From the NCBI RefSeq assembly GCF_055900595.2, contig NZ_CM148325.1: a stretch of 64,000 bases of DNA; one strand, written 5' to 3'. Shown one piece after another: positions 19,901 to 60,377 of this stretch. Each line of letters starts with the position of its first letter. Position 1 is the first letter of the stretch. The notes below the pieces were generated by a model that was given only the letters and a program-made list of their open reading frames with translations, was not told the origin of the DNA and ran no database searches. The position numbers were made by a program, and so were the translations under genes.

Positions 19901-20131
19901 ATGAAAAAAATAATAGTTTTTTTTAACTCTGAACCAGCAATGGTAGTGCCAGTGATGACCGGAGTTAACACCATCATGCGTGAATATCCAAATGGCGAAA
20001 CAACACACCTCACTGTAATGGCTGCAGGGTTTCCATCTCTGACCGGAGATCATAAAATCATTTATGTAGCAGCGGATCGACATGTAACTTCAGAAGAAAT
20101 TCTGGAAGCAGCAATGAGACTCTTGAATTGA
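19901..20131 (+). CDS. Hypothetical protein (76 aa)
   Basis: Clean ORF in the cold-shock moron cluster. Confidence 0.45.
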   Translation: MKKIIVFFNSEPAMVVPVMTGVNTIMREYPNGETTHLTVMAAGFPSLTGDHKIIYVAADRHVTSEEILEAAMRLLN

Positions 20132-30356: not shown

Positions 30357-30743
30357 ATGTTTCTGAAACAGGACACGTTTAATTATGAAAAACAGTCCGT
30401 GGTGCTCAGTGAGCTGTCCGGGCTGCAGAGAATTGAATATCTGACGTTTGTTCAGCAGCGAACGGCAAAGTTTGATGCCGTGGAGGGAGAACTGCCGGAG
30501 GCTGAACGACAGATTGCTTTTCTGCGGATGGGGATGGATATCAATGCCTGGCTGGTTTCCCGCTCACTGTGGAATGCGGATCAGTCTAAGGATGTAGAGA
30601 CGCTTTGCGCATCCGTTATTACAACATGGTCGTATGATGCCCTGGGTGCGGGGGCGGAGATGGTTCTGTCGCTGAGCGGTATGGGGGCCATTGATAATGC
30701 CGTGGATGATGAGCATGAGGCGCTGACGCCGGAAAAGTCCTGA
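30357..30743 (+). CDS. Tail assembly chaperone G
   Basis: MFLKQDTFNYEKQSVVLSELSGLQRIEYL matches lambda G. Confidence 0.85.
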   Translation: MFLKQDTFNYEKQSVVLSELSGLQRIEYLTFVQQRTAKFDAVEGELPEAERQIAFLRMGMDINAWLVSRSLWNADQSKDVETLCASVITTWSYDALGAGAEMVLSLSGMGAIDNAVDDEHEALTPEKS

Positions 30744-31081
30744 CGCGGGAAATGCAGTTTGTCATGCGGCTTGCCCGGGAGTTCCGGCGGGCAGACTGGC
30801 GGCGGATGCTGTCGGAAATGTCGGCCACTGAGCTTGGTGAGTGGGGCGATTATTTCCGGATGCAGAGCTTCAGTGATGTGTGGATGGATGCGCAGTTTGC
30901 CTCGCTGAAGGCATTGATCGTGAGAATGGTGTCCGGCAGCAGTGATGCTGCGGTGGCTGATTTCAGCCTTTTACCGGAAGAGAACGGGATACCGGAGCGA
31001 ACGGACGAAGAACTGATGCATCTTGGGGAAGGTATTTCCGGAGGTGTGCGTTATGGACCAGATAGCCAACCTGGTCATTGA
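30677..31081 (+). CDS. Tail assembly protein T segment (expected as G-T fusion via -1 frameshift)
   Basis: -1 frame is open from 30677 across the G stop into the T-like ORF. Confidence 0.7.
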
Positions 31082-34000
31082 TTTGGGGATTGATGCGGCA
31101 GAGTTTAAAAATGAAATTCCCCGTATCAAAAACCTTCTGAATGGTGCAGCCAGCGATGCAGAACGGTCTTCTGCCCGTATGCAGCGTTTTATGGAGCGTC
31201 AGACTCAGGCCGCCCGGCAGACAACGCAGGCAGCTTCTTCGGCTGCAACAGCCGCATCCGTCCATGCGCAGACGGTGGAGAAGAACGCACAGGCTCATGA
31301 ACGCATGGCCCGCGAGGTGGAGAAAACCCGCCAGCGCATGGAGGCACTGAGCCAGAAAATGCGCGAGGAACAGGCGCAGGCCATCGCTCTGGCGGAGGCT
31401 CAGGATAAAGCGGCTGCTGCGTTTTATCGTCAGATTGACAGTGTGAAACAGGCCAGTGCGGGGCTGCAGGAATTACAGCGTATTCAGCAGCAGATCCGAC
31501 AGGCCAGAAACAGTGGCGGGATTGGTCAGCAGGATTATCTGGCGCTGATTTCTGAGGTTACGGCGAAAACCCGTGTTCTTACGCAGGCTGAGGCAGAGGC
31601 TACCCGACAGAAAGTGGCGTTTATCCGTCAGCTTAAAGAGCAGGCAACCCGCCAGAATCTTTCTTCTTCTGAGTTGCTTCGTGCCAGGGCTGCCCAGCTG
31701 GGGGTAAGCAGTGCTGCAGAAGTGTATATCCGCAAAATGGAGCGGGCAGGAAAAGCCACGCATTCGCTGGGTCTGAAAAGTGCAGCGGCCCGCCAGGAGA
31801 TAGGCGTTCTGATAGGTGAACTGGCCCGCGGCAATTTAGGGGCGCTGAGGGGATCCGGGATAACGCTGGCTAACCGTGCCGGATGGATAGACACACTGAT
31901 GTCACCGAAAGGCATGATGCTGGGCGGGGTTATTGGCGGTATTACCGCGGCCGTCTATGGTCTGGGTAAAGCCTGGTATGACGGTCAGAAGGAGGGGGAA
32001 GAATTTAACCGCCAGCTGTCGCTGACGGGGCATTATGCCGGAGTCACTGCCGGGCAGCTGTGGACGCTCAGTCGTGCTATTTCCGGGAATGGTATCACGC
32101 AACATGCTGCAGCCGGTGCGCTGGCTCAGGTGGTGGGGAGTGGTGCATTTCGTGGAAACGATATCGGTATGGTGGCGAGAGCTGCCGCACAGATGGAGCG
32201 ATCGGTTGGCCAGTCGGTCAGCGATACCATAAATCAGTTTAAGCGGCTGAAGGATGATCCTGTAAATGCCGCGAAGTCTCTGGACAATGAGCTGCATTTT
32301 CTTACTGCCACTCAGCTTGAGCAGATACGCGTCCTTGGAGAGCAGGGGCGGTCCAGTGATGCGGCACGGATAGCCATGTCTGCACTGGCAGAGGAAACCG
32401 GTCGGCGTACTGCGGATATTGATAATAACCTCAATGCGCTGGGCAGTACGCTGCAAACTTTGTCTGACTGGTGGAAGCAGTTCTGGGATGCGGCCATGAA
32501 TATTGGTCGTGAAGATTCGCTGGATGCGCAGATTGCCACTTTGCAGGAGAAAGTGTCGCGGGCGAAAAGACTCCCCTGGACGGCATCATCTTCTCAGGTT
32601 GAATACGATCAGCAGCGTCTTAACGATCTTCAGGAGAAAAAACGCCAGAAGGATTTGCAGGATGCAAAAGAGCAGGCAGAGCGGAATTATCAGGAGCAAC
32701 AGAAACGCCGTAATGCTGAAAATGCTGCACTGAACCGGATGAATGAAACGGAAGCTGCACGACATCAGCGTGAAATTGCGCGTATTAATGCCATGCAGTA
32801 CGCCGATCAGGCTGTCAGGGATGCGGCGATACAACGTGAAAATGAACGTTACGAGAAAGCCCTGGCATCCGGTAAGAAAAAAACACGCGAAACCCGTAAT
32901 GATGAGGCCACCCGGTTATTGCTGCAGTACAGTCAGCAACAGGCACAGGTGGAAGGACAGATTGCTGCTGCCAGACAGTCAGCAGGCATTGCCACGGAAA
33001 GGATGACAGAAGCGCATAAACAGCTCCTGGCTCTGCAGCAGCGCATCAGCGACCTGGACGGGAAAAAACTGACGGCAGATGAAAAGAGTGTGCTGGCCCG
33101 TAAAGATGAACTGATTCAGGCACTGACGCTGCTGGATGTAAAACAGCAGGAGCTTCAGAAACAGACGGCACTCAACGAGCTGAAGAAAAAACAATTCAGC
33201 TGACCAGTCAACTGGCTGAAGAAGAGCGCGCTCAGCGTCAGCAACATGACCTGGATATCGCCACGGTGGGTATGGGTGATCAGCAGCGACAGCGATATCA
33301 GGTACAACTGAGTCTTCGCCAGAAATACCAGCAACAGCTGGAGCAGTTGAGGCGGGATAGTGAGCAGAAAGGGACATATAACACGGATGACTACAGAAAG
33401 GCCGAGCAGGCGCTGACGGAGAGCCTGAACCGACAACTGAATGAGAATCGCCGTTACTGGCAACAGCTTGAAGTTGTGCAGGGTAACTGGAAAAACGGAG
33501 TCCTGCGTGCATTTCAGGATTTTACCGTGGATGCAGATAATACGGCAGAAACAGCAGAACAGGTGTTCTCGTCAGCCTTCAGCAACATGGGAAATGGCCT
33601 GGCAACTTTTGTCACTACCGGCAAACTCAATTTCAAATCCTTCACCTCTTCTGTGCTGTCAGATATGGCGAAAATCCTGGCGCAGGCAACCATGATGAAA
33701 TCGATAAAAGGGATTGGCAGTGTACTGGGATTTGATCTCAGCAGCCTTTCCCTGAATGCCAATGGGGGGATTTATCAGTCTGCTGATTTGAGTCGTTACA
33801 GTGGCACGGTGGTTAACCGTCCGACGTTTTTTGCTTTTGCAAAAGGCGCGGGTGTGATGGGGGAAGCGGGACCTGAAGCCATTCTGCCATTGCGTCGTGG
33901 TGCTGACGGTAAGCTGGGGGTTGTGGCGGATATTGGGGGTTCAGGTATGGCGATGTTTTCCCCGCAGTACAACATCGAGATCAATAACGATGGCACGAAC

Positions 34001-34117
34001 GGGCAGATAGGTCCGGCTGCCCTGAAGGCGGTTTATGACCTCGGGAAAAAAGCGGCAGCGGACTTTATGCAACAGCAGGCCCGTGATGGTGGTCGGTTAA
34101 GTGGAGCATATCGGTAA
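31053..34117 (+). CDS. Tail tape measure protein (gpH-like), interrupted by an apparent frameshift near 33186-33203
   Basis: Two consecutive ORFs (frame 0 to 33203, -1 frame open from 33110) both with tape-measure character; GGAGGTG RBS before ATG 31053. Confidence 0.8.
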
Positions 34118-34446
34118 TGGAGACGTTTCACTGGAAAGTGCGCCCGGATATGAATGTGGTATCAGAGCCGAAAGTGGTGACAGTGAAGCTGGGCGATGGT
34201 TATGAACAGCGTCGTGCGGCGGGACTGAATAACCAGTTGTCGACTTACAGCGTGACGATACGTGTTCGTAAATGTGAACACCCATCTTTAAAAGCCTTTC
34301 TGGAACGGCACGGTGGCGTCCGTGCATTTCAGTGGACGCCACCTTATGACTGGAAACCGATCAGGGTGGTTTGTCGTAAATGGTCGGCAAGCGTGGGGGC
34401 GCTGTGGGTAACCATAACGGCAGATTTTGAACAGGTCGTGGCATAG
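34117..34446 (+). CDS. Minor tail protein M
   Basis: METFHWKVRPDMNVVSEP... matches lambda M. Confidence 0.9.
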   Translation: METFHWKVRPDMNVVSEPKVVTVKLGDGYEQRRAAGLNNQLSTYSVTIRVRKCEHPSLKAFLERHGGVRAFQWTPPYDWKPIRVVCRKWSASVGALWVTITADFEQVVA

Positions 34447-34455
34447 GAGGCTCTG

Positions 34456-35154
34456 ATGCAGGATATTCCACAGGAAACACATCATGAGACGACACGCCTC
34501 ACTCAGTCAGCCCAGGTGGTGCTCTGGGAAATCGATCTGACAGAGGTCGGTGGTGAACGTTATTTTTTCTGTAATGAGCAGAACGAAAAAGGTGAGCCGG
34601 TTACCTGGCAGGGGCGGCAGTATCAGGCATACCCCATTCAGGGGACGGGATTTGAACTGAACGGCAAGGGCAGTGCTGCCCGTCCGACACTGACGGTTTC
34701 TAACCTGCACGGAATGGTCACCGGGATGGCGGAAGACCTGCAGAGTCTGGTCGGCGGAACGGTGGTCAGGCGTAAGGTTTACGCCCGTTTTCTGGATGCG
34801 GTGAACTTCGTCAACGGAAACAGTGACGCCGATCCGGAGCAGGAGGTGATCAGCCGCTGGCGCATCGAGCAGTGCAGCGAACTGAGCGCGGTCAGTGCCT
34901 CTTTTGTACTGTCCACGCCGACGGAAACGGACGGTGCTGTTTTTCCGGGACGTATTATGCTGGCCAACACCTGCACCTGGACCTATCGCGGCGATGAGTG
35001 CGGTTATAGCGGTCCGGCGGTCGCGGATGAATATGATCAGCCGACGTCCGATATCACGAAGGATAAATGCAGCAAATGCCTGAGCGGCTGTAAGTTCCGC
35101 AATAACGTCGGCAACTTTGGCGGTTTTCTTTCCATTCACAAACTTTCGCAGTAA
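34456..35154 (+). CDS. Minor tail protein L
   Basis: Lambda L-like, conserved Cys cluster at the C-terminus. Confidence 0.9.
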   Translation: MQDIPQETHHETTRLTQSAQVVLWEIDLTEVGGERYFFCNEQNEKGEPVTWQGRQYQAYPIQGTGFELNGKGSAARPTLTVSNLHGMVTGMAEDLQSLVGGTVVRRKVYARFLDAVNFVNGNSDADPEQEVISRWRIEQCSELSAVSASFVLSTPTETDGAVFPGRIMLANTCTWTYRGDECGYSGPAVADEYDQPTSDITKDKCSKCLSGCKFRNNVGNFGGFLSIHKLSQ

Positions 35155-35158
35155 TTCC

Positions 35159-35902
35159 ATGACAGAGACAGAATCAGCGATTCTGGCGCACGCCCGGCGA
35201 TGTGCGCCAGCGGAGTCGTGCGGCTTCGTGGTGAGAGCGCCGGAGGGGGAAAGATATTTCCCCTGCGTGAATATCTCCGGTGAGCCGGAGGCGTATTTCC
35301 GGATGTCGCCGGAGGACTGGCTGCAGGCAGAGATGCAGGGTGAGATTGTGGCACTGGTCCACAGTCACCCCGGTGGTCTGCCCTGGCTGAGTGAGGCCGA
35401 CCGGCGGCTGCAGGTGCAGAGTGATTTGCCGTGGTGGCTGGTTTGCCGGGGAGCGATTCACAAGTTCCGCTGTGTGCCACATCTTTCCGGGCGGCGCTTT
35501 GAGCACGGGGTGACGGACTGTTACACGCTGTTCCGGGATGCTTACCATCTGGCGGGGATTGAGATGCCGGATTTTCATCGCGAGGATGACTGGTGGCGTA
35601 ACGGTCAGAATCTCTATCTGGATAATCTGGAGGCCACAGGGCTGTATCAGGTGCCGTTGTCAGCGGCGCAGCCGGGCGATGTGCTGCTGTGCTGTTTTGG
35701 TTCATCGGTGCCGAATCATGCCGCCATTTACTGTGGTGACAGCGAGCTGCTGCACCATATTCCTGAACAACTGAGCAAACGAGAGAGGTACACCGACAAA
35801 TGGCAGCGACGCACACACTCCCTCTGGCGTCACCGGGCATGGCACGCATCTGCCTTTACGGGGATTTACAACGATTTGGCCGCCGCATCGACCTTCGAGT
35901 GA
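35159..35902 (+). CDS. Tail assembly protein K (MPN/JAB plus NlpC/P60-like)
   Basis: VALVHSHPGG motif; lambda K-like. Confidence 0.9.
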   Translation: MTETESAILAHARRCAPAESCGFVVRAPEGERYFPCVNISGEPEAYFRMSPEDWLQAEMQGEIVALVHSHPGGLPWLSEADRRLQVQSDLPWWLVCRGAIHKFRCVPHLSGRRFEHGVTDCYTLFRDAYHLAGIEMPDFHREDDWWRNGQNLYLDNLEATGLYQVPLSAAQPGDVLLCCFGSSVPNHAAIYCGDSELLHHIPEQLSKRERYTDKWQRRTHSLWRHRAWHASAFTGIYNDLAAASTFE

Positions 35903-36447
35903 AAACGGGGTCCGAAGCCATCCGGGCGCTGGCCATGCAGATCCCGGCGTTTCGTCAGAAACTGAGCGACGGCTGGTACCAGGTACGCATTGCCGGGCGT
36001 GATGCCGGTGAAACCGAATTGTCTGCCCGTCTTAATGAGCCGCTGGCAAATGGTGCCGTGATCCACATCGTGCCGCGTCTGGCGGGAGCTAAAAGTGGCG
36101 GTGTGTTTCAGGTGGTGCTGGGGGCGGCGCTGATTGCGGTGGCATGGTGGAACCCTGTGGGCTGGCTGGGAGCCGCGGCTGTATCGGGTATGTATGCGGC
36201 AGGGGCCAGTATGATCCTGGGCGGAGTGGCGCAGATGCTGGCACCGAAAGCCAGGACGCCCACGGCAGCAAGTACAGATAACGGCAAACAGAACACCTAT
36301 TTCTCCTCACTGGATAACATGGTTGCCCAGGGCAATGTTCTGCCCGTTCTGTACGGTGAAATGCGCGTGGGGTCGCGGGTGGTCTCTCAGGAGATCAGCA
36401 CGGCAGACGAAGGGGATGGTGGTCAGGTTGTGGTGATTGGTCGCTGA
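35800..36447 (+). CDS. Tail assembly protein I
   Basis: MAATHTLPLASPGMARICLYGDLQRFG... matches lambda I; overlaps K. Confidence 0.9.
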   Translation: MAATHTLPLASPGMARICLYGDLQRFGRRIDLRVKTGSEAIRALAMQIPAFRQKLSDGWYQVRIAGRDAGETELSARLNEPLANGAVIHIVPRLAGAKSGGVFQVVLGAALIAVAWWNPVGWLGAAAVSGMYAAGASMILGGVAQMLAPKARTPTAASTDNGKQNTYFSSLDNMVAQGNVLPVLYGEMRVGSRVVSQEISTADEGDGGQVVVIGR

Positions 36448-36507
36448 TGAAAAACGTTTTATGTGAAACCGCCTCCGGGCGGTTTTGTCGTTTATGGAGC
36501 GTTAGGA

Positions 36508-39500
36508 ATGGGTAAAGGCAGCAGTAAGGGGCATACTCCGCGCGAAGCGAAGGACAACCTGAAGTCCACGCAGTTGCTGAGTGTGATCGATGCCATCAGC
36601 GAAGGGCCGGTTGAAGGTCCGGTAGATGGATTAAAAAGCGTGCTGCTGAACAGTACGCCAGTGCTGGACATTGAGGGGAATACCAACATCTCCGGCGTCA
36701 CGGTGGTGTTCCGGGCCGGTGAGCAGGAGCAAACACCGCCGGAGGGATTTGAATCCTCCGGCTCCGAGACGGTGCTGGGTACGGAAGTGAAATACGACAC
36801 GCCGATCACCCGGACCATCACGTCGGCAAACATTGACCGACTGCGTTTTACCTTCGGCGTGCAGGCACTGGTGGAAACCACCTCAAAGGGGGACAGGAAT
36901 CCGTCGGAAGTCCGCCTGCTGGTTCAGATACAACGTAACGGTGGCTGGGTGACGGAAAAAGACATCACCATTAAAGGCAAAACCACCTCACAGTATCTGG
37001 CCTCGGTGGTGGTGGGTAACCTGCCGCCGCGCCCGTTCAATATCCGGATGCGCAGGATGACGCCGGACAGCACCACAGACCAACTGCAGAACAAAACGCT
37101 CTGGTCGTCATACACCGAAATCATCGATGTGAAACAGTGCTACCCGAACACGGCACTGGTTGGCGTGCAGGTGGACTCGGAGCAGTTCGGCAGCCAGCAG
37201 GTGAGCCGTAATTATCATCTTCGCGGGCGCATTCTGCAGGTGCCGTCGAACTATAACCCGCAGACGCGGCAATACAGCGGTATCTGGGACGGAACGTTAA
37301 AACCGGCATACAGCAACAACATGGCCTGGTGTCTGTGGGATATGCTGACCCACCCGCGCTACGGCATGGGGAAACGTCTTGGTGCGGCAGATGTGGATAA
37401 ATGGGCGCTGTATGTCATCGGCCAGAATTGCGACCAGTCGGTGCCGGACGGCTTTGGCGGTACGGAGCCGCGCATCACCTGTAACGCTTACCTGACCACA
37501 CAACGTAAGGCGTGGGATGTGCTCAGTGATTTCTGCTCGGCGATGCGCTGTATGCCGGTATGGAGCGGGCAGACGCTGACGTTCGTGCAGGACCGACCGT
37601 CGGATAAGGTGTGGACCTATAACCGCAGTAATGTGGTGATGCCGGATGATGGCGCGCCGTTCCGCTACAGCTTCAGCGCCCTGAAAGACCGCCATAATGC
37701 CGTTGAGGTGAACTGGATTGACCCGGATAACGGCTGGGAGACGGCAACAGAGCTTGTGGAGGACTCGCAGGCCATTGCCCGTTACGGTCGTAACGTCACG
37801 AAGATGGATGCCTTTGGCTGTACCAGCCGGGGGCAGGCACACCGCGCCGGGCTGTGGCTGATTAAAACGGAGCTGCTGGAAACGCAGACGGTGGACTTCA
37901 GCGTGGGTGCCGAAGGGCTTCGCCATGTGCCGGGCGATGTTATTGAAATCTGCGATGATGACTATGCCGGTATCAGCATCGGTGGTCGCGTGCTGGCGGT
38001 GAACAGCCAGACCCGGACGCTGACGCTCGACCGTGAAATCACGCTGCCATCCTCCGGCACCACGCTGATAAGCCTGGTTGACGGTGAGGGTAATCCGGTC
38101 AGCGTGGAGGTCCAGTCCGTCACCGACGGCGTGAAGGTGAAAGTGAGCCGTGTTCCTGACGGCGTTGCTGAATACAGCGTGTGGGGGCTGAAGTTGCCGA
38201 CGTTGCGCCAGCGCCTGTTCCGCTGCGTGAGTATCCGTGAGAACGACGACGGCACGTATGCCATCACTGCCGTGCAGCATGTACCGGAGAAAGAGGCCAT
38301 CGTGGATAACGGGGCGCACTTTGACGGTGACCAGAGCGGCACGGTGAATGGTGTCACGCCGCCAGCAGTGCAGCACCTGACCGCAGAAGTCACTGCAGAC
38401 AGCGGGGAATATCAGGTGCTGGCGCGATGGGACACACCGAAGGTGGTGAAGGGCGTGAGCTTCCTGCTTCGCCTGACCGTGGCAGCGGATGACGGCAGTG
38501 AGCGGCTGGTCAGCACGGCCCGGACGACGGAAACCACTTACCGCTTCACACAACTGGCTCTGGGGAACTACAGGCTGACAGTCCGGGCAGTAAATGCGTG
38601 GGGGCAGCAGGGCGATCCGGCGTCGGTATCGTTCCGGATTGCCGCACCGGCAGCGCCGTCGCGGATTGAGCTGACGCCGGGCTATTTTCAGATAACCGCC
38701 ACGCCGCATCTTGCGGTTTATGATCCGACGGTACAGTTTGAGGTCTGGTTCTCGGAAAAACGGATTGCTGATATCAGGCAGGTTGAAACCAGCGCGCGTT
38801 ATCTTGGTACGGCGCTGTACTGGATAGCCGCCAGTATCAATATCAAACCGGGTCGTGATTATTACTTTTATATCCGCAGTGTGAACACCGTCGGCAAATC
38901 GGCATTCGTGGAGGCTGTTGGTCGGGCGAGCGATGATGCGGAAGGTTACCTGGATTTTTTCAAAGGCCAGATAACCGAATCCCATCTCGGCAAGGAGCTG
39001 CTGGAAAAAGTCGAGCTGACGGAGGATAACGCCAGCAGACTGGAGGAGTTTTCGAAAGAGTGGAAGGACGCCAGTGATAAGTGGAATGCCATGTGGGGCG
39101 TCAAAATTGAGCAGACCAAAGACGGCAAACATTATGTCGCGGGTATTGGCCTCAGTATGGAGGATACAGAGGAAGGCAAACTGAGTCAGTTTCTGGTTGC
39201 CGCCAATCGTATCGCGTTTATTGACCCGGCAAACGGGAATGAAACGCCGATGTTTGTGGCGCAGGGCAACCAGATATTCATGAACGACGTGTTCCTGAAA
39301 CGCCTGACGGCCCCCACCATTACCAGCGGCGGTAATCCTCCGGCATTTTCCCTGACACCGGATGGGCGGCTGACGGCGAAAAATGCCGATATCAGCGGTA
39401 ACGTGAATGCGAACTCCGGGACGCTCAACAACGTCACGATTAACGAGAACTGTCGGGTTCTGGGAAAACTGTCCGCGAACCAGATTGAAGGCGATCTCGT

Positions 39501-39903
39501 TAAAACAGTGGGCAAAGCTTTCCCCCGGGACTCCCGTGCACCGGAGCGGTGGCCATCAGGGACCATTACCGTCAGGGTTTATGACGATCAGCCGTTTGAC
39601 CGGCAGATTGTTATTCCGGCGGTGGCATTCAGCGGCGCTAAACATGAGAGAGAGCATACTGATATTTACTCCTCATGCCGTCTGATAGTGCGGAAAAACG
39701 GTGCTGAAATTTATAACCGTACCGCGCTGGATAATACGCTGATTTACAGTGGCGTTATTGATATGCCTGCCGGTCACGGTCACATGACGCTGGAGTTTTC
39801 GGTGTCAGCATGGCTGGTAAATGACTGGTATCCCACAGCAAGTATCAGCGATTTGCTGGTTGTGGTGATGAAGAAAGCCACCGCAGGCATCAGTATCAGC
39901 TGA
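36508..39903 (+). CDS. Host specificity protein J (central tail fibre)
   Basis: Near-identical to lambda J over most of its length as I recall it; C-terminal about 150 aa diverge. Confidence 0.9.
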
Positions 39904-40623: not shown

Positions 40624-41330
40624 TGCACAGAAAACCCCCAGCTAGGCTGGGGGTTCCGGAAAGCTTTCAGCTTTGAGCCAGTTATTAAAACCCCTTTTGA
40701 TTTGTTAAAACACCTTGCGGTCTGGCAACTGCAAGTGTCAAACAAGAAATCAAAAGGGGGTCCCAATGGGGGACGAAAAGAGCTTAGCGCACACCCGCTG
40801 GAACTGTAAATATCACATAGTTTTTGCGCCGAAATACCGAAGACTGGCGTTTTACGGAGAGAAGCGTAGGGCGATAGGCAGTATTTTGAGAAAGCTGTGT
40901 GAGTGGAAAAGCGTACGGATTCTGGAAGCAGAGTGCTGCGCAGATCATATCCATATGCTTGTGGAAATCCCACCCAAAATGAGCGTATCCGGCTTTATGG
41001 GATATCTGAAAGGGAAAAGCAGTCTGATGCTTTACGAGCAGTTTGGGGATTTGAAATTCAAATACAGAAACAGGGAGTTCTGGTGCCGAGGGTACTATGT
41101 CGATACGGTGGGTAAGAACACGGCGAAGATACAGGACTACATAAAGCACCAGCTTGAAGAGGATAAAATGGGGGAGCAGTTATCGATTCCATATCCGGGC
41201 AGCCCGTTTACGGGCCGTAAGTAACGAAGTTGAATGCAAATGTCAGATCGTATGCGCCTGTTAGGGCGCGGCTGGTAACAGAGCCTTACAGGCGCATTTG
41301 AAAAACCTCCGGCTATGCCGGAGGATATTT
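40621..41330 (+). mobile_element. IS200-family insertion sequence (about 710 bp, boundaries approximate)
   Basis: Left-end hairpin cccccagctaggctggggg, second stem-loop over the RBS, tnpA, right-end hairpin cctccggctatgccggagg. Confidence 0.8.
40766..41224 (+). CDS. tnpA: IS200 transposase TnpA (HUH Y1 transposase)
   Basis: MGDEKSLAHTRWNCKYHIVFAPKYRR...HIHMLVEIPPKMSVS matches IS200 TnpA. Confidence 0.9.
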   Translation: MGDEKSLAHTRWNCKYHIVFAPKYRRLAFYGEKRRAIGSILRKLCEWKSVRILEAECCADHIHMLVEIPPKMSVSGFMGYLKGKSSLMLYEQFGDLKFKYRNREFWCRGYYVDTVGKNTAKIQDYIKHQLEEDKMGEQLSIPYPGSPFTGRK

Positions 41331-41345: not shown

Positions 41346-43751
41346 ATGGCAGCAGTAAAAATCTCAGGTGTGCTGAAAGATGGTGCGGGAAAACCAATAC
41401 AGAACTGCACTATTCAACTGAAGGCAAAGCGTAACAGCACCACGGTACTGGTGAACACGGTGGCTTCTGAAAATCCGGATGAAGCCGGACGTTACAGCAT
41501 GGATGTTGAGTATGGCCAGTACAGCGTCACCCTGCTGGTTGAAGGTTTTCCGCCTTCACATGCCGGGACCATTACCGTCTATGAAGGCTCCAGACCAGGT
41601 ACGCTGAATGATTTTCTCGGTGCCATGACGGAAGATGATGTCATGCCGGAGGCATTGCGTCGTTTTGAGGCAATGGTGGAAGAAGTGGCACGCAACGCCG
41701 AAGCCGCCTCTCAGAGCGCAGCGGCGGCAAAGAAATCCGAAACTGCAGCGGCATCATCAAAGAACGCGGCGAAAACCTCAGAAACGAATGCAGCTAATAG
41801 TGCACAGGCGGCAGCGACCTCAAAGACTGCATCGGCAAACTCCGCGACAGCAGCCAAAAAATCAGAAACCAACGCGAAAAATAGCGAGACAGCCGCAAAG
41901 ACGAGCGAAACCAACGCAAAGTCCAGCCAGACGGCAGCGAAAACCAGCGAAACGAATGCCAAAGCCAGTGAAACTGCGGCAAAAAACAGCCAGGTTGCAG
42001 CAGCCCAAAGCGAGAGCGCGGCAGCCGGTTCTGCGACTTCAGCAGCTGGATCAGCAACTGCTGCGGCTAACAGCCAGAAAGCTGCGAAGACGAGTGAAAC
42101 TAACGCAAAGTCCAGCCAGACGGCAGCGAAGACCAGCGAAACGAATGCCAAAACCAGCGAAACTGCGGCGAAAAACAGTCAGGATGCAGCAGCCCAAAGC
42201 GAGAGTGCTGCAGCTGGTTCTGCAAGCGCGGCGGCTGCTTCTGCCACTGCATCAGCTAACAGTCAAAAAGCAGCAAAAACCAGTGAAACCAACGCAAAGG
42301 CGAGCGAGACTGCGGCGGCGAACTCGGCGCAAGCATCGGCAGCAAGCCAGACAGCAGCTAAAGCAAGTGAAGACGCAGCCAGAGAGTATGCAAGCCAGGC
42401 AGCGGAGCCGTATAAACAAGTTTTGCAGCCGTTGCCCGATGTGTGGATACCGTTTAATGATTCACTGGATATGATTACGGGCTTTTCGCCATCATATAAA
42501 AAAATTGTTATTGGCGACGATGAAATAACAATGCCTGGCGACAAGATTGTAAAGTTTAAACGCGCATCGAAAGCAACTTACATTAATAAATCTGGTGTGC
42601 TGACAGAGGCTGCCATTGACGAGCCACGATTTGAACGTGATGGCCTGCTTATTGAGGGGCAAAGAACTAACCTGCTAATCAATTCAACAAATCCGACTAA
42701 ATGGAACAAGTCGTCAAATATGATCTTAAGTGCATCAGGTGTAGATGATTTCGGATTCCAGTACGCAAAATTTACATTAAAACCAGAAATGGTAGGGCAA
42801 ATTTCAGCGATTAACATAGTAACCGTTTCCGGCAGTAAAGGTTTTGATGTAACAGGCGGAGAAAAGTATGTAACCATATCATGCAGGGTGCAAAGTGGCA
42901 CTCCAAATTTAAGATGCCGATTACGATTTGAAAACTATGATGGTTCTACCTACACATTCTTAGGTGACGCTTACTTAAATACGACAGATTTATCTATTGA
43001 TAAGACGGGTGGTGCCGCTAATCGCATTACTGCAAGGGCTGTTAAAGATGAAGCAAGCAAATGGATCTTTTTTGAGGCGACAATTAAGGCACTTGATACA
43101 GAAAATATGATAGGTGGAATGGTTCAGTATGCCCCGGCAAAAGGAGTGGGCACTGGCGCGGATGATTATATTTATATTGCGACCCCTCAAGTTGAAGGTG
43201 GGGCGTGCGCTTCATCGTTTATTATAACAGGCGCATCCCCTGTAACACGCGCCAGCGATATTGTGACGGTCCCCATTTCTCTAAATTGGTGCAATCCCGC
43301 TATTAGTTCATTAGCAGAAGTTAATACCAATTGGGATGAATCGCCAAACAAAGAAGGTAGCGCACGTATTCTTAATATTTCCACTACGGGAGATACAACT
43401 GAAATTGCAGATGAAAGTTATATGTATTTGGGGTATACATCTTTGGGAGCACGCGCAATCATTACAAATGGTAAAGGCACTAAAATAGAATATAAAAGCG
43501 TTATAGAACGACCAGAGAGAAAAAGCATTATCGGCTTTAGATTCACAGAAAGTCGAGAATTGTGTGTTGTGGTTAACGGTAATATTGGTGCTAAGGTAGT
43601 TTCTCCTTATAAAAAACACAAATATACAGGAGGCTTCATTAATATTGGTGGTCAATCATCATCCGGCAACCGTCACCTATTTGGACACGTTCGAAATCTG
43701 CGTATTTGGCACAAGGCATTGACTGATGCTCAGATGGGGGAGTCAATCTAA
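41346..43751 (+). CDS. Side tail fibre protein (Stf-like)
   Basis: N-terminus MAAVKISGVLKDGAGKPIQNCTIQLKAKRNSTTV matches Stf; Ala/Ser/Thr-rich repeats; divergent C-terminal domain. Confidence 0.85.
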   Translation: MAAVKISGVLKDGAGKPIQNCTIQLKAKRNSTTVLVNTVASENPDEAGRYSMDVEYGQYSVTLLVEGFPPSHAGTITVYEGSRPGTLNDFLGAMTEDDVMPEALRRFEAMVEEVARNAEAASQSAAAAKKSETAAASSKNAAKTSETNAANSAQAAATSKTASANSATAAKKSETNAKNSETAAKTSETNAKSSQTAAKTSETNAKASETAAKNSQVAAAQSESAAAGSATSAAGSATAAANSQKAAKTSETNAKSSQTAAKTSETNAKTSETAAKNSQDAAAQSESAAAGSASAAAASATASANSQKAAKTSETNAKASETAAANSAQASAASQTAAKASEDAAREYASQAAEPYKQVLQPLPDVWIPFNDSLDMITGFSPSYKKIVIGDDEITMPGDKIVKFKRASKATYINKSGVLTEAAIDEPRFERDGLLIEGQRTNLLINSTNPTKWNKSSNMILSASGVDDFGFQYAKFTLKPEMVGQISAINIVTVSGSKGFDVTGGEKYVTISCRVQSGTPNLRCRLRFENYDGSTYTFLGDAYLNTTDLSIDKTGGAANRITARAVKDEASKWIFFEATIKALDTENMIGGMVQYAPAKGVGTGADDYIYIATPQVEGGACASSFIITGASPVTRASDIVTVPISLNWCNPAISSLAEVNTNWDESPNKEGSARILNISTTGDTTEIADESYMYLGYTSLGARAIITNGKGTKIEYKSVIERPERKSIIGFRFTESRELCVVVNGNIGAKVVSPYKKHKYTGGFINIGGQSSSGNRHLFGHVRNLRIWHKALTDAQMGESI
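41901..42278 (+). repeat. Tandem direct repeat (about 189 bp x2) inside stf
   Basis: acgagcgaaaccaacgcaaagtccagccagacggcagcgaaaaccagcgaaacgaatgcc... repeated with few substitutions. Confidence 0.75.
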
Positions 43752-46418: not shown

Positions 46419-47203
46419 GAATATATTCCTTAAAATATTATTGATTTTCATTGCGATATTGTATGTCTGATTCAGGATATGTTGACTTATACATCGGTTT
46501 TGTCTGGGTTATTGGATATGCCAATCCCTAATTTTATTAGAGCATGACTAAAAATGCTGAATATGATAAGGAGCGAAGTGATTATCAGTATGCTGTTCAT
46601 ATAGCCTCGAATTATTAATGTGTTATATATGATATAGTTGACAATTTTTATCCTGGGTGTTCTTAAAGTTCGTAGATAAACATTGTCGTTTCAGGTATAC
46701 AGGAATGCTAACAGATGGCGGCAAAAATCAGGCGGTTTATGGCGCAAGCTGAAGTGGCAACTGCAAACTATCTTATGCAGAGACTCTACACGGATTGGGT
46801 TTAAAAGTATACATAGATAACAGTTTTTATCTGAAGAAGAAAAATATCAAGGTGATATAGCCTATATGCCTTTGATGCGGAGGAATGAATGTGATGGGAG
46901 TGATGTATCTGAATAGTTGAAAAACCGCAGACACGCCTTATGCAAGAACGTGCTGCGGTTGGCTGGTAAATTTTTCGATAGTGCGAGTATTGAATGATTT
47001 CCAGCCGTTATTGATTTTACGCGTAACTCCATGAAAAAACTACTTATCTGTTGAGGAGTTTTTTTGGGGCATATATGGGACAGAAATAGGCCCCAGATAG
47101 ACACTGAGATCGAACTTAGGATGCTTTTTAAAAAATGCAACTATCTGAAAAAACCTAGAAAACGCCAAGGAAACCACAGGATGGGAAAAAACACCTGTGA
47201 ATC

Positions 47204-48487
47204 ATGGATTTCCAGTTATATTCGCTCGGCGCAGCGTTAGTGTTTCATGAAATATTTTTTCCTGAATCATCAACGGCAATGGCGTTAATTCTGGCAATGG
47301 GAACCTACGGTGCAGGTTATGTGGCGCGTATTGTCGGAGCATTTATTTTCGGCAAAATGGGCGACAGAATCGGGCGTAAAAAAGTGCTCTTTATTACCAT
47401 CACTATGATGGGGATCTGTACCACCTTAATTGGTGTGCTGCCGACCTATGCACAAATTGGTGTGTTTGCGCCAATTTTGCTGGTGACGCTGCGTATTATT
47501 CAGGGGCTGGGGGCAGGCGCGGAAATTTCCGGTGCCGGTACGATGCTGGCGGAATATGCGCCAAAAGGTAAGCGCGGAATTATCTCCTCATTTGTTGCTA
47601 TGGGGACTAACTGCGGAACCTTGAGCGCAACGGCAATCTGGGCCTTTATGTTCTTCATTCTCAGTAAAGAGGAACTGTTGGCGTGGGGATGGCGTATACC
47701 GTTCCTGGCGAGCGTTGTCGTGATGGTCTTTGCTATCTGGTTGCGTATGAATCTGAAAGAAAGCCCGGTCTTTGAGAAGGTTAACGACAGCAACCAACCG
47801 ACAGCAAAACCTGCACCTGCTGGTAGCATGTTCCAGAGCAAATCCTTCTGGCTGGCAACAGGGCTGCGTTTTGGTCAGGCTGGTAACTCAGGTTTAATTC
47901 AGACTTTCCTTGCAGGCTATTTAGTGCAGACGTTATTGTTTAACAAAGCAATTCCAACAGATGCATTGATGATCAGTTCGATTCTCGGCTTTATGACCAT
48001 TCCGTTCCTTGGTTGGTTATCCGATAAAATTGGTCGCCGGATCCCGTATATTATTATGAATACCTCTGCGATTGTGCTGGCGTGGCCAATGCTTTCTATC
48101 ATCGTAGATAAAAGCTATGCCCCGAGCACCATTATGGTTGCACTGATTGTGATTCATAACTGTGCGGTGCTGGGATTATTTGCTCTGGAAAACATTACCA
48201 TGGCAGAAATGTTCGGCTGTAAAAACCGCTTTACCCGGATGGCCATTTCTAAAGAAATTGGTGGTCTTATCGCTTCCGGTTTTGGTCCTATCCTGGCGGG
48301 TATTTTCTGCACCATGACGGAATCCTGGTATCCGATCGCCATTATGATCATGGCATATTCAGTGATTGGTTTAATCTCTGCGCTGAAAATGCCAGAAGTG
48401 AAAGACCGTGATTTAAGTGCACTGGAAGATGCCGCGGAAGATCAACCGCGTGTTGTAACAGCTGCGCAACCTTCAAGAAGTCTGTAA
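47204..48487 (+). CDS. ydfJ: MFS transporter YdfJ, 5'-truncated by the prophage insertion
   Basis: 427-aa MFS ORF starting at the prophage/host junction; matches the ydfJ C-terminal fragment. Confidence 0.8.
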   Translation: MDFQLYSLGAALVFHEIFFPESSTAMALILAMGTYGAGYVARIVGAFIFGKMGDRIGRKKVLFITITMMGICTTLIGVLPTYAQIGVFAPILLVTLRIIQGLGAGAEISGAGTMLAEYAPKGKRGIISSFVAMGTNCGTLSATAIWAFMFFILSKEELLAWGWRIPFLASVVVMVFAIWLRMNLKESPVFEKVNDSNQPTAKPAPAGSMFQSKSFWLATGLRFGQAGNSGLIQTFLAGYLVQTLLFNKAIPTDALMISSILGFMTIPFLGWLSDKIGRRIPYIIMNTSAIVLAWPMLSIIVDKSYAPSTIMVALIVIHNCAVLGLFALENITMAEMFGCKNRFTRMAISKEIGGLIASGFGPILAGIFCTMTESWYPIAIMIMAYSVIGLISALKMPEVKDRDLSALEDAAEDQPRVVTAAQPSRSL

Positions 48488-48576
48488 ATCCTCCATCCCT
48501 TCTCTTACCGGAGAGGGGATTTTTTATTCATATAACAAAACATGCAGCTTGCCATATTTAAATTTAAGGAATTGTT

Positions 48577-50037
48577 ATGGGAAATAATTTGTTATCAGCA
48601 AAAGCGACGCTCCCTGTTTATGATCGTAATAACCTGGCCCCAAGAATTGTTCATTTAGGCTTTGGTGCATTTCACCGTGCGCATCAGGGCGTGTATGCCG
48701 ATATTCTTGCTACGGAACATTTCAGTGACTGGGGATATTATGAGGTCAATTTAATCGGCGGCGAACAGCAAATTGCCGATTTACAACAGCAAGATAATCT
48801 TTATACCGTTGCGGAAATGTCGGCCGATGCGTGGACGGCTCGCGTCGTTGGCGTCGTTAAAAAAGCCTTGCACATACAAATAGATGGCTTAGAAACCGTG
48901 CTGGCTGCGATGTGTGAACCGCAAATCGCGATTGTCTCTCTGACAATCACCGAAAAAGGGTATTTCCACTCTCCGGCGACCGGACAGTTAATGCTCGATC
49001 ACCCGATGGTCGTTGCCGACGTGCAAAATCCCCACCAGCCGAAAACTGCAACAGGGGTGATTGTTGAGGCGCTGGCTCGCCGTAAAGCGGCAGGACTTCC
49101 CGCATTTACCGTCATGTCATGTGACAACATGCCAGAAAACGGTCATGTTATGCGTGACGTTGTCACTTCCTACGCGCAAGCTGTTGATGTAAAACTGGCA
49201 CAATGGATCGAAGAAAACGTGACTTTCCCATCAACAATGGTGGACCGTATTGTGCCCGCAGTGACGGAGGATACGCTGGCGAAAATCGAACAACTTACCG
49301 GTGTGCGCGATCCTGCTGGCGTTGCCTGTGAACCTTTCCGCCAGTGGGTAATAGAAGATAACTTTGTTGCCGGACGTCCGGAATGGGAAAAAGCGGGAGC
49401 CGAACTGGTTAGTGATGTGCTGCCTTATGAAGAGATGAAGTTGCGCATGCTCAACGGCAGTCATTCATTCCTGGCGTATCTGGGGTATCTTGCCGGATAT
49501 CAGCACATTAATGACTGCATGGAAGATGAACATTATCATCATGCAGCGTATGCCTTGATGTTGCAGGAACAAGCGCCCACGCTGAAAGTGCAGGGCGTTG
49601 ATTTGCAAGATTACGCTAACCGATTAATTGAACGCTATAGCAACCCGGCGCTACGTCATCGAACCTGGCAGATTGCGATGGATGGCAGCCAGAAATTGCC
49701 ACAGCGGATGTTGGATTCTGTTCGCTGGCATCTGGCGCATGACAGCAAGTTCGATCTGCTGGCGCTGGGCGTCGCGGGTTGGATGCGTTATGTCGGTGGT
49801 GTTGATGAACAGGGAAATCAGATAGAAATCAGTGACCCACTGTTACCTGTTATTCAGAAGGCAGTACAAAGTAGTGCTGAAGGGAAAGCGCGCGTCCAGT
49901 CATTGCTGGCGATTAAGGCGATCTTTGGTGATGATTTACCGGGCAATAGCTTGTTTACTGCAAAAGTGACGGAAGCGTACTTGTCTTTATTAGCGCATGG
50001 CGCAAAAGCGACCGTGGCGAAATATTCCGTGAAGTAA
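48577..50037 (+). CDS. ydfI: Mannitol/mannonate dehydrogenase family oxidoreductase
   Basis: 486 aa with N-terminal Rossmann motif [11 protein letters not shown]. Confidence 0.85.
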
Positions 50038-50072
50038 AAAAAGCAATGCCGCCATCGGCGGCATTCACACGC

Positions 50073-50276
50073 TTAGTTCATGCCGAGACGAATCAGGTCC
50101 AGAGGTGCCAGTTTCTCTTCACAACCTTCAACAACTACGGTTTTTCCGCGGCGGATTTGCTCAGCGGTCAGACCTTCAGTATCAATCGACAGGATCTTGC
50201 CAGTGTGACCGGTGCCGCTAACCATAACACGGCTGCCAGTGGTGATTGCGTTACGGTTACGATCGTAGGTCGTCAT
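50073..50276 (-). CDS. ydfZ: Small protein YdfZ
   Basis: 67-aa [32 protein letters not shown]... Confidence 0.75.
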
Positions 50277-50452
50277 AGGTGTTTTCTCCTTTCTGATTTA
50301 CAGTCGAAGCCCACGTAACGGGCGCAATATAAATACTCCTGTCGAGTGAAATATTTTTTGTTTTTGATCAAGCTCACATCTTTTTTGATGCATGCATGAG
50401 CCATATGACGGAGGGAAAAACTCTCACCCCGGATGGGATGAGAGGAAATGAA

Positions 50453-51139
50453 TTACTCTTCGCTAAACCAGTCGCTGTTTTCCTGGCGGATCTGGCGCAC
50501 GGATTCGCTGATTTCCTGCAAATGTTGCGTCATTGCACGTTCTACCGCATCGCCATCACGTTTTTGCAGGGCAGAGAAAATATCAAGATGCTGGCGTAAC
50601 AGCATTTCTGGTGGAGAAACGTGGTCGAAACTCATATAGCGCACGCGATCAACGGTCGCTTTCAGGTTCTCAATGGTATCCCACGCCAGTTGACAGTCGG
50701 CAATCTGCGTCAGGAGTTGATGGAAGTTGTCATCAAGTTCAAAAAAATCATCCAGTTGCTTGCGCTCAATGGCAATGCGTTGCTGGTGAAGATTTTGTTC
50801 CAGTTGGTAGCACTGGCTTTCGGTAATCATGCTCGCCGCCCGACGCGCCACCGCGCACTCAATGGCCTGACGGATAAAACTGCAGTTGCGCACCTGGGCC
50901 ATGGAAATTTTGTTGACGTAGCTGCCACGCTGCGGACGAATTTGAATCAGGCCGTTTTCCGCCAGTTTAATAAAGGCTTCACGAACCGGCTGGCGTGACA
51001 CATTGAAACGAACAGAAACTTCTTTTTCCGACAACGGTGTGCCTGGTGCAATCAGGCAATGGACAATGTCGCGGCGAAGAATACGATAAATCTGCTGATT
51101 GACAGGCTGTGTGGGATTAAGTTGCGTTTCGACGGTCAT
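50453..51139 (-). CDS. rspR: GntR/FadR-family transcriptional regulator
   Basis: N-terminal GntR HTH, FadR-like C-domain; ydfH/rspR position. Confidence 0.8.
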
Positions 51140-51227
51140 TCGTTCTTGCTTGTGAGTGAGTTAACTGCATGAGTCTACCACTTTTTTGTGACAAGCAATA
51201 ACCCGGCAGTTACGCCGGGTATAAAAA

Positions 51228-51974
51228 TTACTGACGGTGGACATTCAGTCCGGCATAGCTTTGGGTAACCGGCATCATTTCCAGGGTATTGATATTGACG
51301 TGAGCAGGCAGCGTTGACACCCACCAGACGGCTTCGCTGACATCTTCTGGCGTCAATGCAACTGTGTTTTGATAGGTTTTTTCCGCTTTACCGTCATCAC
51401 CTTTAAAGCGGACATTGGAAAACTCGGTGCCACCCACCAGTCCCGGTTCGATGTCTGTGACACGTACTGCCGTACCGTGCAGATCTGTGCGTAGATTAAG
51501 GCTGAACTGACGAACAAACGCTTTCGTCGCACCATAAACGTTACCACCAGCATACGGCCAGCTGCCTGCCGTGGAGCCAATGTTAATGATATGACCATGA
51601 TTACGTTCAACCATACCCGGTAAGACGGCCCGCGTCATATATACCAGGCCTTTGTTGTTGGTATCAATCATCGTTTCCCAGTCTTCAACGCTGGCTTTAT
51701 GCGCAGGCTCCATGCCCAGCGCCAGACCGGCATTGTTTACCAGGATATCAATATTGCACCACTCGGCAGGAAGCGATGCCAGCATCTCTTCAATAGCGGC
51801 GCGATTACGAACGTCCAGTTGGGCGATATACAGATTATCACCCAGTTCGTCTTTTAACTCCTGCAACCGCTCCTGGCGACGGCCAGTGGCGATAACTTTA
51901 TGCCCTTGTTGAATAAAACGACGAGTAATGCATTCACCAAAACCTGCCGTTGCTCCAGTTACTAAAACGATCAT
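51228..51974 (-). CDS. ydfG: NADP-dependent short-chain dehydrogenase (3-hydroxy acid dehydrogenase)
   Basis: MIVLVTGATAGFG Rossmann motif; SDR family. Confidence 0.85.
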   Translation of the reverse strand: MIVLVTGATAGFGECITRRFIQQGHKVIATGRRQERLQELKDELGDNLYIAQLDVRNRAAIEEMLASLPAEWCNIDILVNNAGLALGMEPAHKASVEDWETMIDTNNKGLVYMTRAVLPGMVERNHGHIINIGSTAGSWPYAGGNVYGATKAFVRQFSLNLRTDLHGTAVRVTDIEPGLVGGTEFSNVRFKGDDGKAEKTYQNTVALTPEDVSEAVWWVSTLPAHVNINTLEMMPVTQSYAGLNVHRQ

Positions 51975-52110
51975 CTCACTGTTCCTCAACGCTTTTGTGT
52001 GTCAATAACATAGCACGTGATGCTTAAGAGCGGGTAATACTGGTTTGCAAGATTGCACTCCGTTATCAGTAAGCCTACGCTATGGAACACCTCGCGTTCA
52101 GGAGAAGAAA

Positions 52111-54156
52111 ATGACAACAATGAATCCTTTCCTTGTGCAAAGCACACTGCCGTATCTGGCTCCCCATTTTGATCAAATTGCCAATCATCACTATCGACCG
52201 GCATTTGATGAGGGAATGCAGCAAAAGCGGGCCGAAATTGCCGCCATTGAGCTCAACCCGCAAACACCTGATTTCAACAATACTATTCTGGCACTGGAGC
52301 AGAGTGGGGAACTGCTGACCCGCGTCACCAGCGTTTTTTTTGCGATGACTGCGGCGCATACCAATGATGAATTACAGCGTCTTGATGAGCAGTTTTCCGC
52401 TGAACTGGCAGAACTGGCTAATGATATCTATCTGAACGGTGAATTATTCGCGCGAGTAGATGCTGTCTGGCAGCGCCGTGAATCCGAGGGGCTTGATAGT
52501 GAATCCATTCGCCTGGTGGAGGTTATTCATCAACGTTTTGTCCTTGCCGGAGCCAAACTTGCACAAGCTGATAAAGCAAAATTAAAAGTTCTTAATACAG
52601 AAGCTGCGACCCTGACCAGCCAGTTTAACCAGCGGTTACTTGCGGCAAATAAATCCGGCGGTCTGGTTCTGGACGATATTGCGCAACTGGCTGGGATGAG
52701 CGAGCAGGAGATTGCGCTGGCGGCAGAGGCGGCTCGCGAGAAAGGTCTGGATAACAAATGGCTTATTCCGCTGCTGAATACCACCCAGCAACCGGCGCTT
52801 GCTGAACTGCGCGATCGCGCGACGCGTGAAAAACTATTCACTGCGGGCTGGACTCGGGCAGAAAAAAATGACGCTAACGATACCCGTGCCATTATTCAAC
52901 GGCTGGTGGAGATCCGCGCGCAGCAGGCAAAACTGCTTGGTTTCCCTCATTATGCTGCATGGAAAATCGCCGATCAGATGGCAAAAACGCCTGAAGCAGC
53001 ACTCAACTTTATGCGGGAAATTGTCCCGGCCGCGCGTAAGCGAGCAGACGATGAACTTGCGTCTATTCAGACGGTTATTGAAAAGCAGCAAGGCGGATTT
53101 ATCGCCCAGCCTTGGGACTGGGCATTTTATGCCGAACAGGTACGGCGAGAGAAATTTGATCTTGATGAGGCGCAGCTCAAGCCATATTTTGAATTAAACA
53201 CGGTATTGAATGAAGGTGTATTCTGGACCGCGAATCAGCTCTTCGGTATTAAGTTTGTCGAACGTTTTGATATTCCTGTCTACCATCCTGACGTTCGTGT
53301 GTGGGAAATTTTTGATCATAATGGCGTGGGGCTGGCGTTATTTTACGGTGATTTCTTCGCCCGTGATTCAAAAAGCGGCGGTGCATGGATGGGCAATTTT
53401 GTTGAGCAATCAACGCTGAATGAAACGCATCCGGTAATTTATAACGTCTGCAATTATCAGAAACCCGCTGCCGGTGAACCTGCGTTGTTACTCTGGGATG
53501 ATGTGATAACCTTATTCCATGAATTTGGTCATACGCTGCACGGCCTTTTTGCCCGCCAGCGTTATACCACGCTTTCCGGTACCAACACGCCGCGTGATTT
53601 TGTCGAATTTCCATCGCAAATCAACGAACACTGGGCAACGTATCCGCAGGTATTCGCTCGCTACGCCCGGCATTATCAGAGCGGGGCAGCAATGCCTGAC
53701 GAACTGCAACAGAAAATGCGTAAAGCCAGCCTGTTCAACAAAGGGTATGAGATGAGCGAACTGCTTAGCGCCGCACTTCTCGATATGCGCTGGCATTGCC
53801 TGGAAGAAAACGAAGCAATACAGGATGTCGATGATTTCGAATTGCGGGCGCTGGTGGCGGAAAATATGGATCTTCCTGCTATACCGCCACGCTATCGCAG
53901 CAGTTATTTCGCCCATATTTTTGGTGGCGGATATGCCGCAGGTTATTACGCTTATCTGTGGACGCAAATGTTGGCCGATGATGGTTACCAGTGGTTTGTT
54001 GAGCAGGGCGGATTAACGCGTGAAAATGGGAGGCGTTTTCGCGAGGCGATCCTTTCCAGAGGTAACAGCGAAGATCTGGAACGCCTGTATCGACAATGGC
54101 GCGGTAAGGCTCCTCAGATTATGCCGATGCTGCAACATCGTGGCTTGAACGTATAA
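52111..54156 (+). CDS. dcp: Dipeptidyl carboxypeptidase Dcp (M3 metallopeptidase)
   Basis: MTTMNPFLVQSTLPYLAPHFDQIANHHYRP...; HEFGHTLH zinc motif. Confidence 0.9.
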   Translation: MTTMNPFLVQSTLPYLAPHFDQIANHHYRPAFDEGMQQKRAEIAAIELNPQTPDFNNTILALEQSGELLTRVTSVFFAMTAAHTNDELQRLDEQFSAELAELANDIYLNGELFARVDAVWQRRESEGLDSESIRLVEVIHQRFVLAGAKLAQADKAKLKVLNTEAATLTSQFNQRLLAANKSGGLVLDDIAQLAGMSEQEIALAAEAAREKGLDNKWLIPLLNTTQQPALAELRDRATREKLFTAGWTRAEKNDANDTRAIIQRLVEIRAQQAKLLGFPHYAAWKIADQMAKTPEAALNFMREIVPAARKRADDELASIQTVIEKQQGGFIAQPWDWAFYAEQVRREKFDLDEAQLKPYFELNTVLNEGVFWTANQLFGIKFVERFDIPVYHPDVRVWEIFDHNGVGLALFYGDFFARDSKSGGAWMGNFVEQSTLNETHPVIYNVCNYQKPAAGEPALLLWDDVITLFHEFGHTLHGLFARQRYTTLSGTNTPRDFVEFPSQINEHWATYPQVFARYARHYQSGAAMPDELQQKMRKASLFNKGYEMSELLSAALLDMRWHCLEENEAIQDVDDFELRALVAENMDLPAIPPRYRSSYFAHIFGGGYAAGYYAYLWTQMLADDGYQWFVEQGGLTRENGRRFREAILSRGNSEDLERLYRQWRGKAPQIMPMLQHRGLNV

Positions 54157-54200
54157 ACACAACCAATGGCTGTCCTGGAGATATCGCCAGGCCAGCCTGG

Positions 54201-54719: not shown

Positions 54720-54994
54720 TGTTTTTTGTCCACGCTATTATATGTAAAGGTGATTTGCTTTTTCTGTATGCTCGTCCAATATAATAATTTTCAAACATAT
54801 AAATCCGATTATTCTGAAAATATGTTTAAGACTCTTCAATCTTCTTAACTTTAGTGAGTTAAATTCTCTGAATATTTGACAGCTAGTTGGCTGATTTTAA
54901 ATGCCTTATAACAATTGGCAGTATTCTTATTTGGCAATTATAAAAATAGCAACCAGACTTAATAAGTCAAACCAAACGCAATTAAGGAGTTAGT

Positions 54995-60372: not shown

Positions 60373-60377
60373 ATTAG

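Follow-up and report, generated by a model that had tools for sequence, protein, structure and literature searches.

Genomic context of the tape measure locus

The window analysed here, a 64,000-nucleotide stretch of contig NZ_CM148325.1, contains a lambdoid, mEp460-like prophage located at the Qin site of an Escherichia coli chromosome, between rspB and ydfJ. It begins inside the integrase gene adjoining rspB and continues with xis, exo, dicB, the immunity region, Q and the genes for lysis. Genes for the terminase, the portal and a protease-capsid fusion follow, and after them the tail genes, arranged as Z, U, V, G, T, tape measure, M, L, K, I and J. Behind these lie lom and the genes for the tail fibres; the end of the window is chromosomal, from ydfJ through marRAB. 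The virion module is about 99% identical to those of the plaque-forming phages mEp460, Ayreon, Tritos and PhiR47_1. Strain 300033, the closest complete genome (99.7–99.95% identical over the prophage), served for annotation mapping, and a comparison of the 24-kb prophage core with 5,426 complete E. coli genomes gave a best match of 99.7%. The features at and around the tape measure gene are collected in Table 1.

Table 1. Position of the tape measure gene, its lesion and the adjoining tail genes in the window.
Feature	Position	Strand	Remarks
Tail assembly chaperone genes G (30357–30743) and T (30752–31081, -1 frame)	30357–31081	+	intact; support the identification of the tape measure gene
Tail tape measure (lambda gpH-type) pseudogene	31053–34117	+	3,065 nt; RefSeq annotation of relatives mapped on the window
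N-terminal fragment ORF	31053–33203	+	713 native residues plus out-of-frame QFS, 716 aa in all, then TGA
Second A7 tract, GKKKT region of the tape measure gene	32877–32883	+	intact in the window
Open -1 frame with lambda-type C-terminal domain	33110–34117	+	native C-terminal 308 residues from 33191 on
A6 tract, site of the one-base deletion	33186–33191	+	A7 in intact alleles (AAG AAA AAA ACA, K K K T)
Premature TGA resulting from the frameshift	33201–33203	+	codon reading
Tail tip genes M, L, K, I, J	34117–39903	+	lengths equal to those in intact relatives

Upstream of the tape measure gene, the overlap between G and T (30729–30743) reads CCG GAA AAG TCC TGA and holds the heptamer G_GAA_AAG, with T in the -1 frame as expected. 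The corresponding heptamer of lambda is G_GGA_AAG.

A tape measure gene in two reading frames

The start of the tape measure gene is ATG 31053 according to the annotation of relatives, and its length of 3,065 nt compares with 3,066 nt (1,021 aa) in intact relatives. The zero frame ends as AAG (33183–33185), AAA (33186–33188), AAA (33189–33191), CAA, TTC, AGC and TGA (33201–33203). When translated from 33053, the -1 frame meets stops at 33080, 33101 and 33107 and is then open from 33110 to a TAA at 34115–34117. This arrangement had been described in the first-pass annotation, every coordinate of which proved exact on re-reading. The same annotation had named the aaaaaa at 33186–33191 as the only homopolymer in the overlap of the two frames (33110–33203), and an A6 run is indeed present there and is the longest homopolymer of the overlap.

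Both parts are recognisable as tape measure sequence. The 716-aa N-terminal part matches phrog_24, “tail length tape measure protein” (E 4e-214, residues 1–714), and the Pfam families TMP_2 and TMP_4 (PF06791, PF24622); a search of the NCBIfam profiles with this fragment matched no family. The part in the -1 frame, which had been proposed to continue as tape measure sequence, matches TIGR01541 (tape_meas_lam_C) with 254.5 bits against a cutoff of 104.75, as well as phrog_6747 (E 1e-181). Gene callers see it as a 283-aa ORF starting at GTG 33266, which matches PF09718. Since the TIGR01541 match covers profile positions 51–332, the break lies about 50 positions inside the conserved lambda-type C-terminal domain.

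Most features of the lambda-type tape measure family are therefore present, namely the C-terminal domain, the N-terminal and central regions, and the place between G/T and M-L-K-I-J. The locus shares with lambda gpH and with the mEp460-like tape measure protein (WP_001587081.1) the gene order V, G, T, tape measure, M, L, K, I, J and the TMP_2/TMP_4 and TIGR01541 domains, but the window copy is broken after residue 713 by a -1 deletion. The single uninterrupted reading frame expected of the gpH family is absent, and with its one frame interrupted by the TGA at 33201–33203 the gene is classified as a pseudogene of this family rather than as a functional member. In practical terms, the ORFs at 31053–33203 and 33266–34117 should be merged in annotation and flagged as one frameshifted tape measure pseudogene.

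One A is missing relative to intact relatives

All 40 of the 40 best E. coli matches to positions 32700–33700 span 1,002 bases, compared to 1,001 bases in the query. The sole alignment gap falls in the homopolymer, which has six A in the window and seven in Ecol_316 and IAI39; alignment to intact homologous tape measure genes, a check proposed with the first-pass annotation, thus places the single missing base inside the tract. Over the whole gene, the window differs from its A7 counterparts in Ecol_316 and strain 300033 by no substitution and by nothing besides the tract; comparison with loci L001 and L004 shows no substitution and one indel. In the intact relatives the gene is a single 3,066-nt ORF for a product of 1,021 aa annotated as “phage tail tape measure protein”. 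Given the complete lack of substitutions, the window DNA with one A added is exactly the gene for WP_001587081.1 (1,021 aa), a protein present on at least 1,000 contigs. An indel inside a mononucleotide run, with the rest of the gene conserved, is the pattern of a slipped-strand pseudogene, and the lesion, judged by this alignment, is a specific change and not a chance one.

The A6 allele in independent assemblies

An obvious concern is that the genome truly carries A7 and that the homopolymer was under-called in the record, as homopolymer indels are the usual errors of long-read sequencing. Some of the data would agree with this. The sole complete RefSeq genome with A6, that of strain 204446, has several genes annotated as “frameshifted” close by, and two of the loci retrieved (L014 and L015) show additional indels in the gene that also affect the second A7 tract. 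However, the exact 716-aa truncated product was called on 67 independent contigs from three sources (NCBI, ENA and Logan), SPAdes-type Illumina contigs and Logan assemblies among them, and every locus of this product that was fetched has A6. Eleven fetched loci with a window-type gene (0–1 substitution) have A6, some of them from the same contigs. Three of the A6 loci (L008, L019 and L021) are the same as the window over the stretches aligned (5.0–8.2 kb), and the complete agreement of L008 and L021 speaks against an error; L011 differs by one SNP. In L007, L009 and L010 the tape measure gene is the same as in the window and the downstream L/K haplotypes are different. Taken over L007–L013, L016, L017 and L019–L021, the A6 loci show 99.2–100% identity to the window in the aligned stretches, and their downstream L/K haplotypes number at least three.

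The quality of the record itself also argues against under-calling. Over 44 kb aligned to the closest relative, only one other homopolymer-length difference was found, T8 versus T7 in ynfN, and the remaining indels are intergenic or self-cancelling. The second A7 tract, which provides an internal control against systematic under-calling of homopolymers, is whole in the window and has lost length only in L014 and L015, two indel-rich assemblies. The possibility that the window is an error-rich long-read record was accordingly discarded, no other gene-breaking indel being present in 44 kb compared to a relative that is 99.7–99.95% identical. A sequencing or assembly error, one of the options raised in the first-pass annotation, is effectively excluded by the 67 contigs with the truncated protein and by A6 loci whose identity to the window reaches 100%, and we consider it very unlikely. 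Restoration of a single frame on resequencing had been named as the result that would refute the apparent frameshift; independent assemblies in effect give the answer, and in them the frame stays broken. On these comparisons we regard the A6 allele as a real and heritable mutation. More generally, a search of independent assemblies for an exact protein can tell a genuine homopolymer mutation apart from an error of sequencing even where reads are inaccessible.

Two observations were made alongside. The ynfN difference (19917–19924) is T8 in the window and T7 in strain 300033, and it is the ynfN of strain 300033 that is annotated as “frameshifted”. The A7 run at 32877–32883 constitutes another potential slippage site within the tape measure gene.

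Distribution of A6 and A7 alleles

The 81-nt context of the tract is contained in 1,807 records among the 5,426 complete E. coli genomes. The exact A7 context occurs in 1,214 of these records, most of the remaining ones differing through substitutions, and the exact A6 context occurs in a single one (1/1,807), that of strain 204446. There, the tape measure gene (CXW77_RS25210) belongs to the same family, has the same A6 tract and was already flagged as “frameshifted” by NCBI PGAP. Unlike the window, however, which shows one clean lesion corroborated by independent assemblies, this gene has 5 indel columns and two neighbouring genes are also annotated as “frameshifted”; the record is probably error-rich. 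The extra base is present in all phage records that cover the region (17/17), including the plaque-formers mEp460, Ayreon, Tritos and PhiR47_1. With A6 rare, and with a single ORF containing A7 standard in prophages and phage isolates alike, the division into two ORFs is not conserved in this gene. A scan of species-representative genomes for the tract as A6 to A8 gave no match and was uninformative on provenance.

Probable recurrence of changes in tract length

The downstream 283-aa ORF was called on 136 contigs, and its contexts reveal a second haplotype (L018). This haplotype also has A6, but its gene differs from that of the window by 38 substitutions and the nearest flanking SNP (33026) is different as well; its own 716-aa product is present on 16 contigs. 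An A8 allele of the window haplotype was found on one Logan contig, and an A5 allele was not found in the assembly collection. In all, A6 is seen on two haplotypes, with 67 contigs for one and 16 for the other, and A8 on a single contig. Three further loci (L003, L014 and L015) were set aside as independent A6 events, as additional indels are present in their copies of the gene and affect the other A7 tract as well.

The simplest reading of A6 on two haplotypes is that of independent slippage events. Alternatively, recombination may have moved an A6 segment of at most about 900 bp, as delimited by the flanking differences at 33026 and 33940, from one haplotype to the other. The several flank haplotypes found around the same A6 gene could also stem from recombination that followed one event, instead of from recurrence. 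Nevertheless, the occurrence of A6 on two haplotypes together with an A8 allele suggests that the tract is a recurrent hotspot of slipped-strand mutation, and the A7 tract may thus represent a small mutational hotspot by which mEp460-like prophages turn cryptic.

Unlikely alternatives: recoding or a functional split gene

The first-pass annotation had also considered slippage-dependent expression. Here the full-length protein would be produced by -1 ribosomal frameshifting on AAA AAA or by transcriptional insertion of an A, either as a programmed event or as a leak that maintains viability at a low yield. The geometry of the site is partly favourable. A -1 shift of the A-site tRNA-Lys from AAA (33189–33191) to AAA (33188–33190) would allow perfect re-pairing and would regenerate the exact wild-type K K K T, the restored-frame junction peptide running across ELKKKTIQLTSQ; the truncated product ends in ELKKKQFS. 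The A6 alleles, moreover, persist on 67 and 16 contigs. Precedents exist in the non-programmed frameshift suppression documented on lysine-rich heptamers in E. coli (PMC10861913) and in the rescue of a homopolymer indel by low-level frameshifting in herpesvirus thymidine kinase (PMC5009743).

Several lines of evidence stand against a programmed event. The two-ORF state is not conserved, exact A7 being found in 1,214 records and exact A6 in 1, with A7 in every phage isolate. The heptamer in the zero frame is G_AAA_AAA, in which the shift of the P-site codon from AAA to GAA creates a first-position mismatch, so that only the A site re-pairs perfectly. The 90 nt from 33186 to 33275 have a predicted folding energy of -22.1 kcal/mol, compared to a mean of -21.5 for shuffled sequences (z = -0.20), and reading of the sequence 6–17 nt upstream of the tract revealed no Shine-Dalgarno-like or GGAGG-like element. 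Transcriptional slippage is disfavoured by the length of the run, 6 nt, whereas about 9 nt are generally needed for efficient slippage in most bacteria (PMC1088944). Finally, the persistence of A6 in lysogens requires no expression at all, as the tail genes of a prophage are silent and neutral. A programmed frameshift was rejected on grounds of conservation, of a heptamer that is only half slippery, and of the lack of a predicted stimulatory structure. Dependence of expression on slippage in any of these forms is unlikely. Low adventitious -1 slippage on AAA AAA, regenerating the wild-type protein, is possible, although it would probably have little functional relevance.

Two known systems are instructive in this respect. 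The programmed -1 frameshift of lambda G/GT operates in the same tail module, one gene upstream, and also involves a tRNA-Lys codon (PMC5009743), but its overlap is conserved in all relatives and phage isolates, whereas the tape measure split is rare and shows no recoding signals. The closest known analogue for rescue by slippage is the “savior” indel in the G7 run of herpes simplex thymidine kinase (PMC5009743), a one-base indel in a 7-nt homopolymer of a viral gene that is rescuable by slippage in principle. In contrast to that case, there is here no evidence of rescue and no known selective benefit.

It might also be argued that the 716-aa N-terminal fragment and a separately initiated 283-aa C-terminal fragment (from GTG 33266) together replace the single protein. 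Both ORFs are predicted by gene callers, and the C-terminal fragment does hold most of the conserved domain. Yet no Shine-Dalgarno sequence precedes GTG 33266 or ATG 33272, about 25 residues would be lost between the break and the restart, the break falls within the TIGR01541 domain at about profile position 50, and the arrangement is present in no phage isolate. The ruler protein must be one chain, as established by lambda gene H genetics. A functional split gene hence appears extremely improbable.

Proposed origin and consequences of the lesion

The reading that we favour, with a probability of roughly 85%, is that the loss of one A from the A7 tract in the tape measure gene of this mEp460-like prophage represents a real, inherited, inactivating mutation. 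The -1 deletion would have arisen by slipped-strand mispairing at A7 during DNA replication. Translation is then predicted to stop three codons past the tract, giving a 716-aa fragment that lacks most of the lambda-type C-terminal domain, and this domain would be left in the -1 frame, which offers it no convincing start site. Mutants of lambda gene H make no tails, and tail length tracks the length of the single gpH chain. By analogy with these genetics, tail-less particles are expected: normal tails would not be assembled, and induction would yield no or very few infectious particles. The prophage is thus likely to be tail-defective, and possibly the defect is slightly leaky and revertible. 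The suggestion of the first-pass annotation that the split marks an inactivating mutation in a defective prophage gains support from the A7 tract and single ORF of relatives and free-living phages, the defect itself being proposed by analogy.

All other late genes are as long as those of intact relatives, and the break in the tape measure gene is the only lesion seen in the virion module. Since the remaining virion genes of the window continue to match intact relatives, the inactivation is recent. The lesion also occurs in several lineages. We suggest scoring this prophage as tail-defective despite the otherwise complete appearance of its virion module.

It is tempting to speculate that the A7 tract serves as a reversible switch of tail production, in which slippage from A7 to A6 turns virion production off in a lysogen lineage, rare -1 ribosomal slippage on AAA AAA or reversion from A6 to A7 in induced replication yields a few infectious particles that keep the prophage transmissible, and the recurrence of A6 owes something to selection besides mutation pressure. 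Phase-variable contingency loci share with this locus a length polymorphism at one site (A6, A7 and A8 here) that recurs on different haplotypes. In contrast to such loci, the tract is short (7 nt) and the off state is rare (1 of 1,807 complete-genome records; 67 contigs versus at least 1,000), and a switch of this kind seems quite unlikely. The locus is best described as an ordinary frameshifted pseudogene of a known gene family in a known type of prophage, and implies no new mechanism. It is mildly noteworthy in that the A6 allele is real and occurs across dozens of assemblies, and in that the A7 tract has been hit more than once.

Other features of the prophage and its flanks

Downstream of the tape measure gene, the segment 34950–35400, comprising the 3′ end of L, the L-K spacer and the 5′ end of K, contains about 26 clustered differences from the closest relatives. 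Here the spacer is one base shorter than in these relatives, a TAA stop replaces TGA, and the A6-bearing loci fall into at least three haplotypes. The segment resembles a small patch of recombination within tail modules that are otherwise identical.

An IS200-family element of about 700 bp (40625–41328, with a tnpA ORF at 40766–41224 on the + strand) lies directly downstream of the lom terminator, ahead of the tail fibre gene. The transposase that it encodes matches NF033573 with 144 bits (cutoff 55), and the element is absent in strain 300033. A polar effect on the side tail fibre genes is conceivable. At 41880–42317, the tail fibre gene contains internal direct repeats of about 250 bp, which appear as off-register matches of 83.5% identity to the relative's copy of the gene.

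In the early region, an ORF of 823 aa with an exonuclease domain (945–3416, - strand) is whole in the window and is split by IS1F in the closest relative (junction near 3195–3205). With this ORF intact, the early region of the window prophage is less decayed than that of its nearest relative among complete genomes.

The chromosomal flank at 47000–64000, from ydfJ to yneK through marRAB, has a best match of 99.1% among the 5,426 complete E. coli genomes. Within this flank, about 475 bp (54280–54755) around a 172-aa ORF (54201–54719, - strand) have no counterpart in strain 300033, which retains only a gene remnant. Beyond 54755 the flank is only 95.4% identical to strain 300033, compared to about 99.7% for the prophage; the prophage and the host backbone have different histories.
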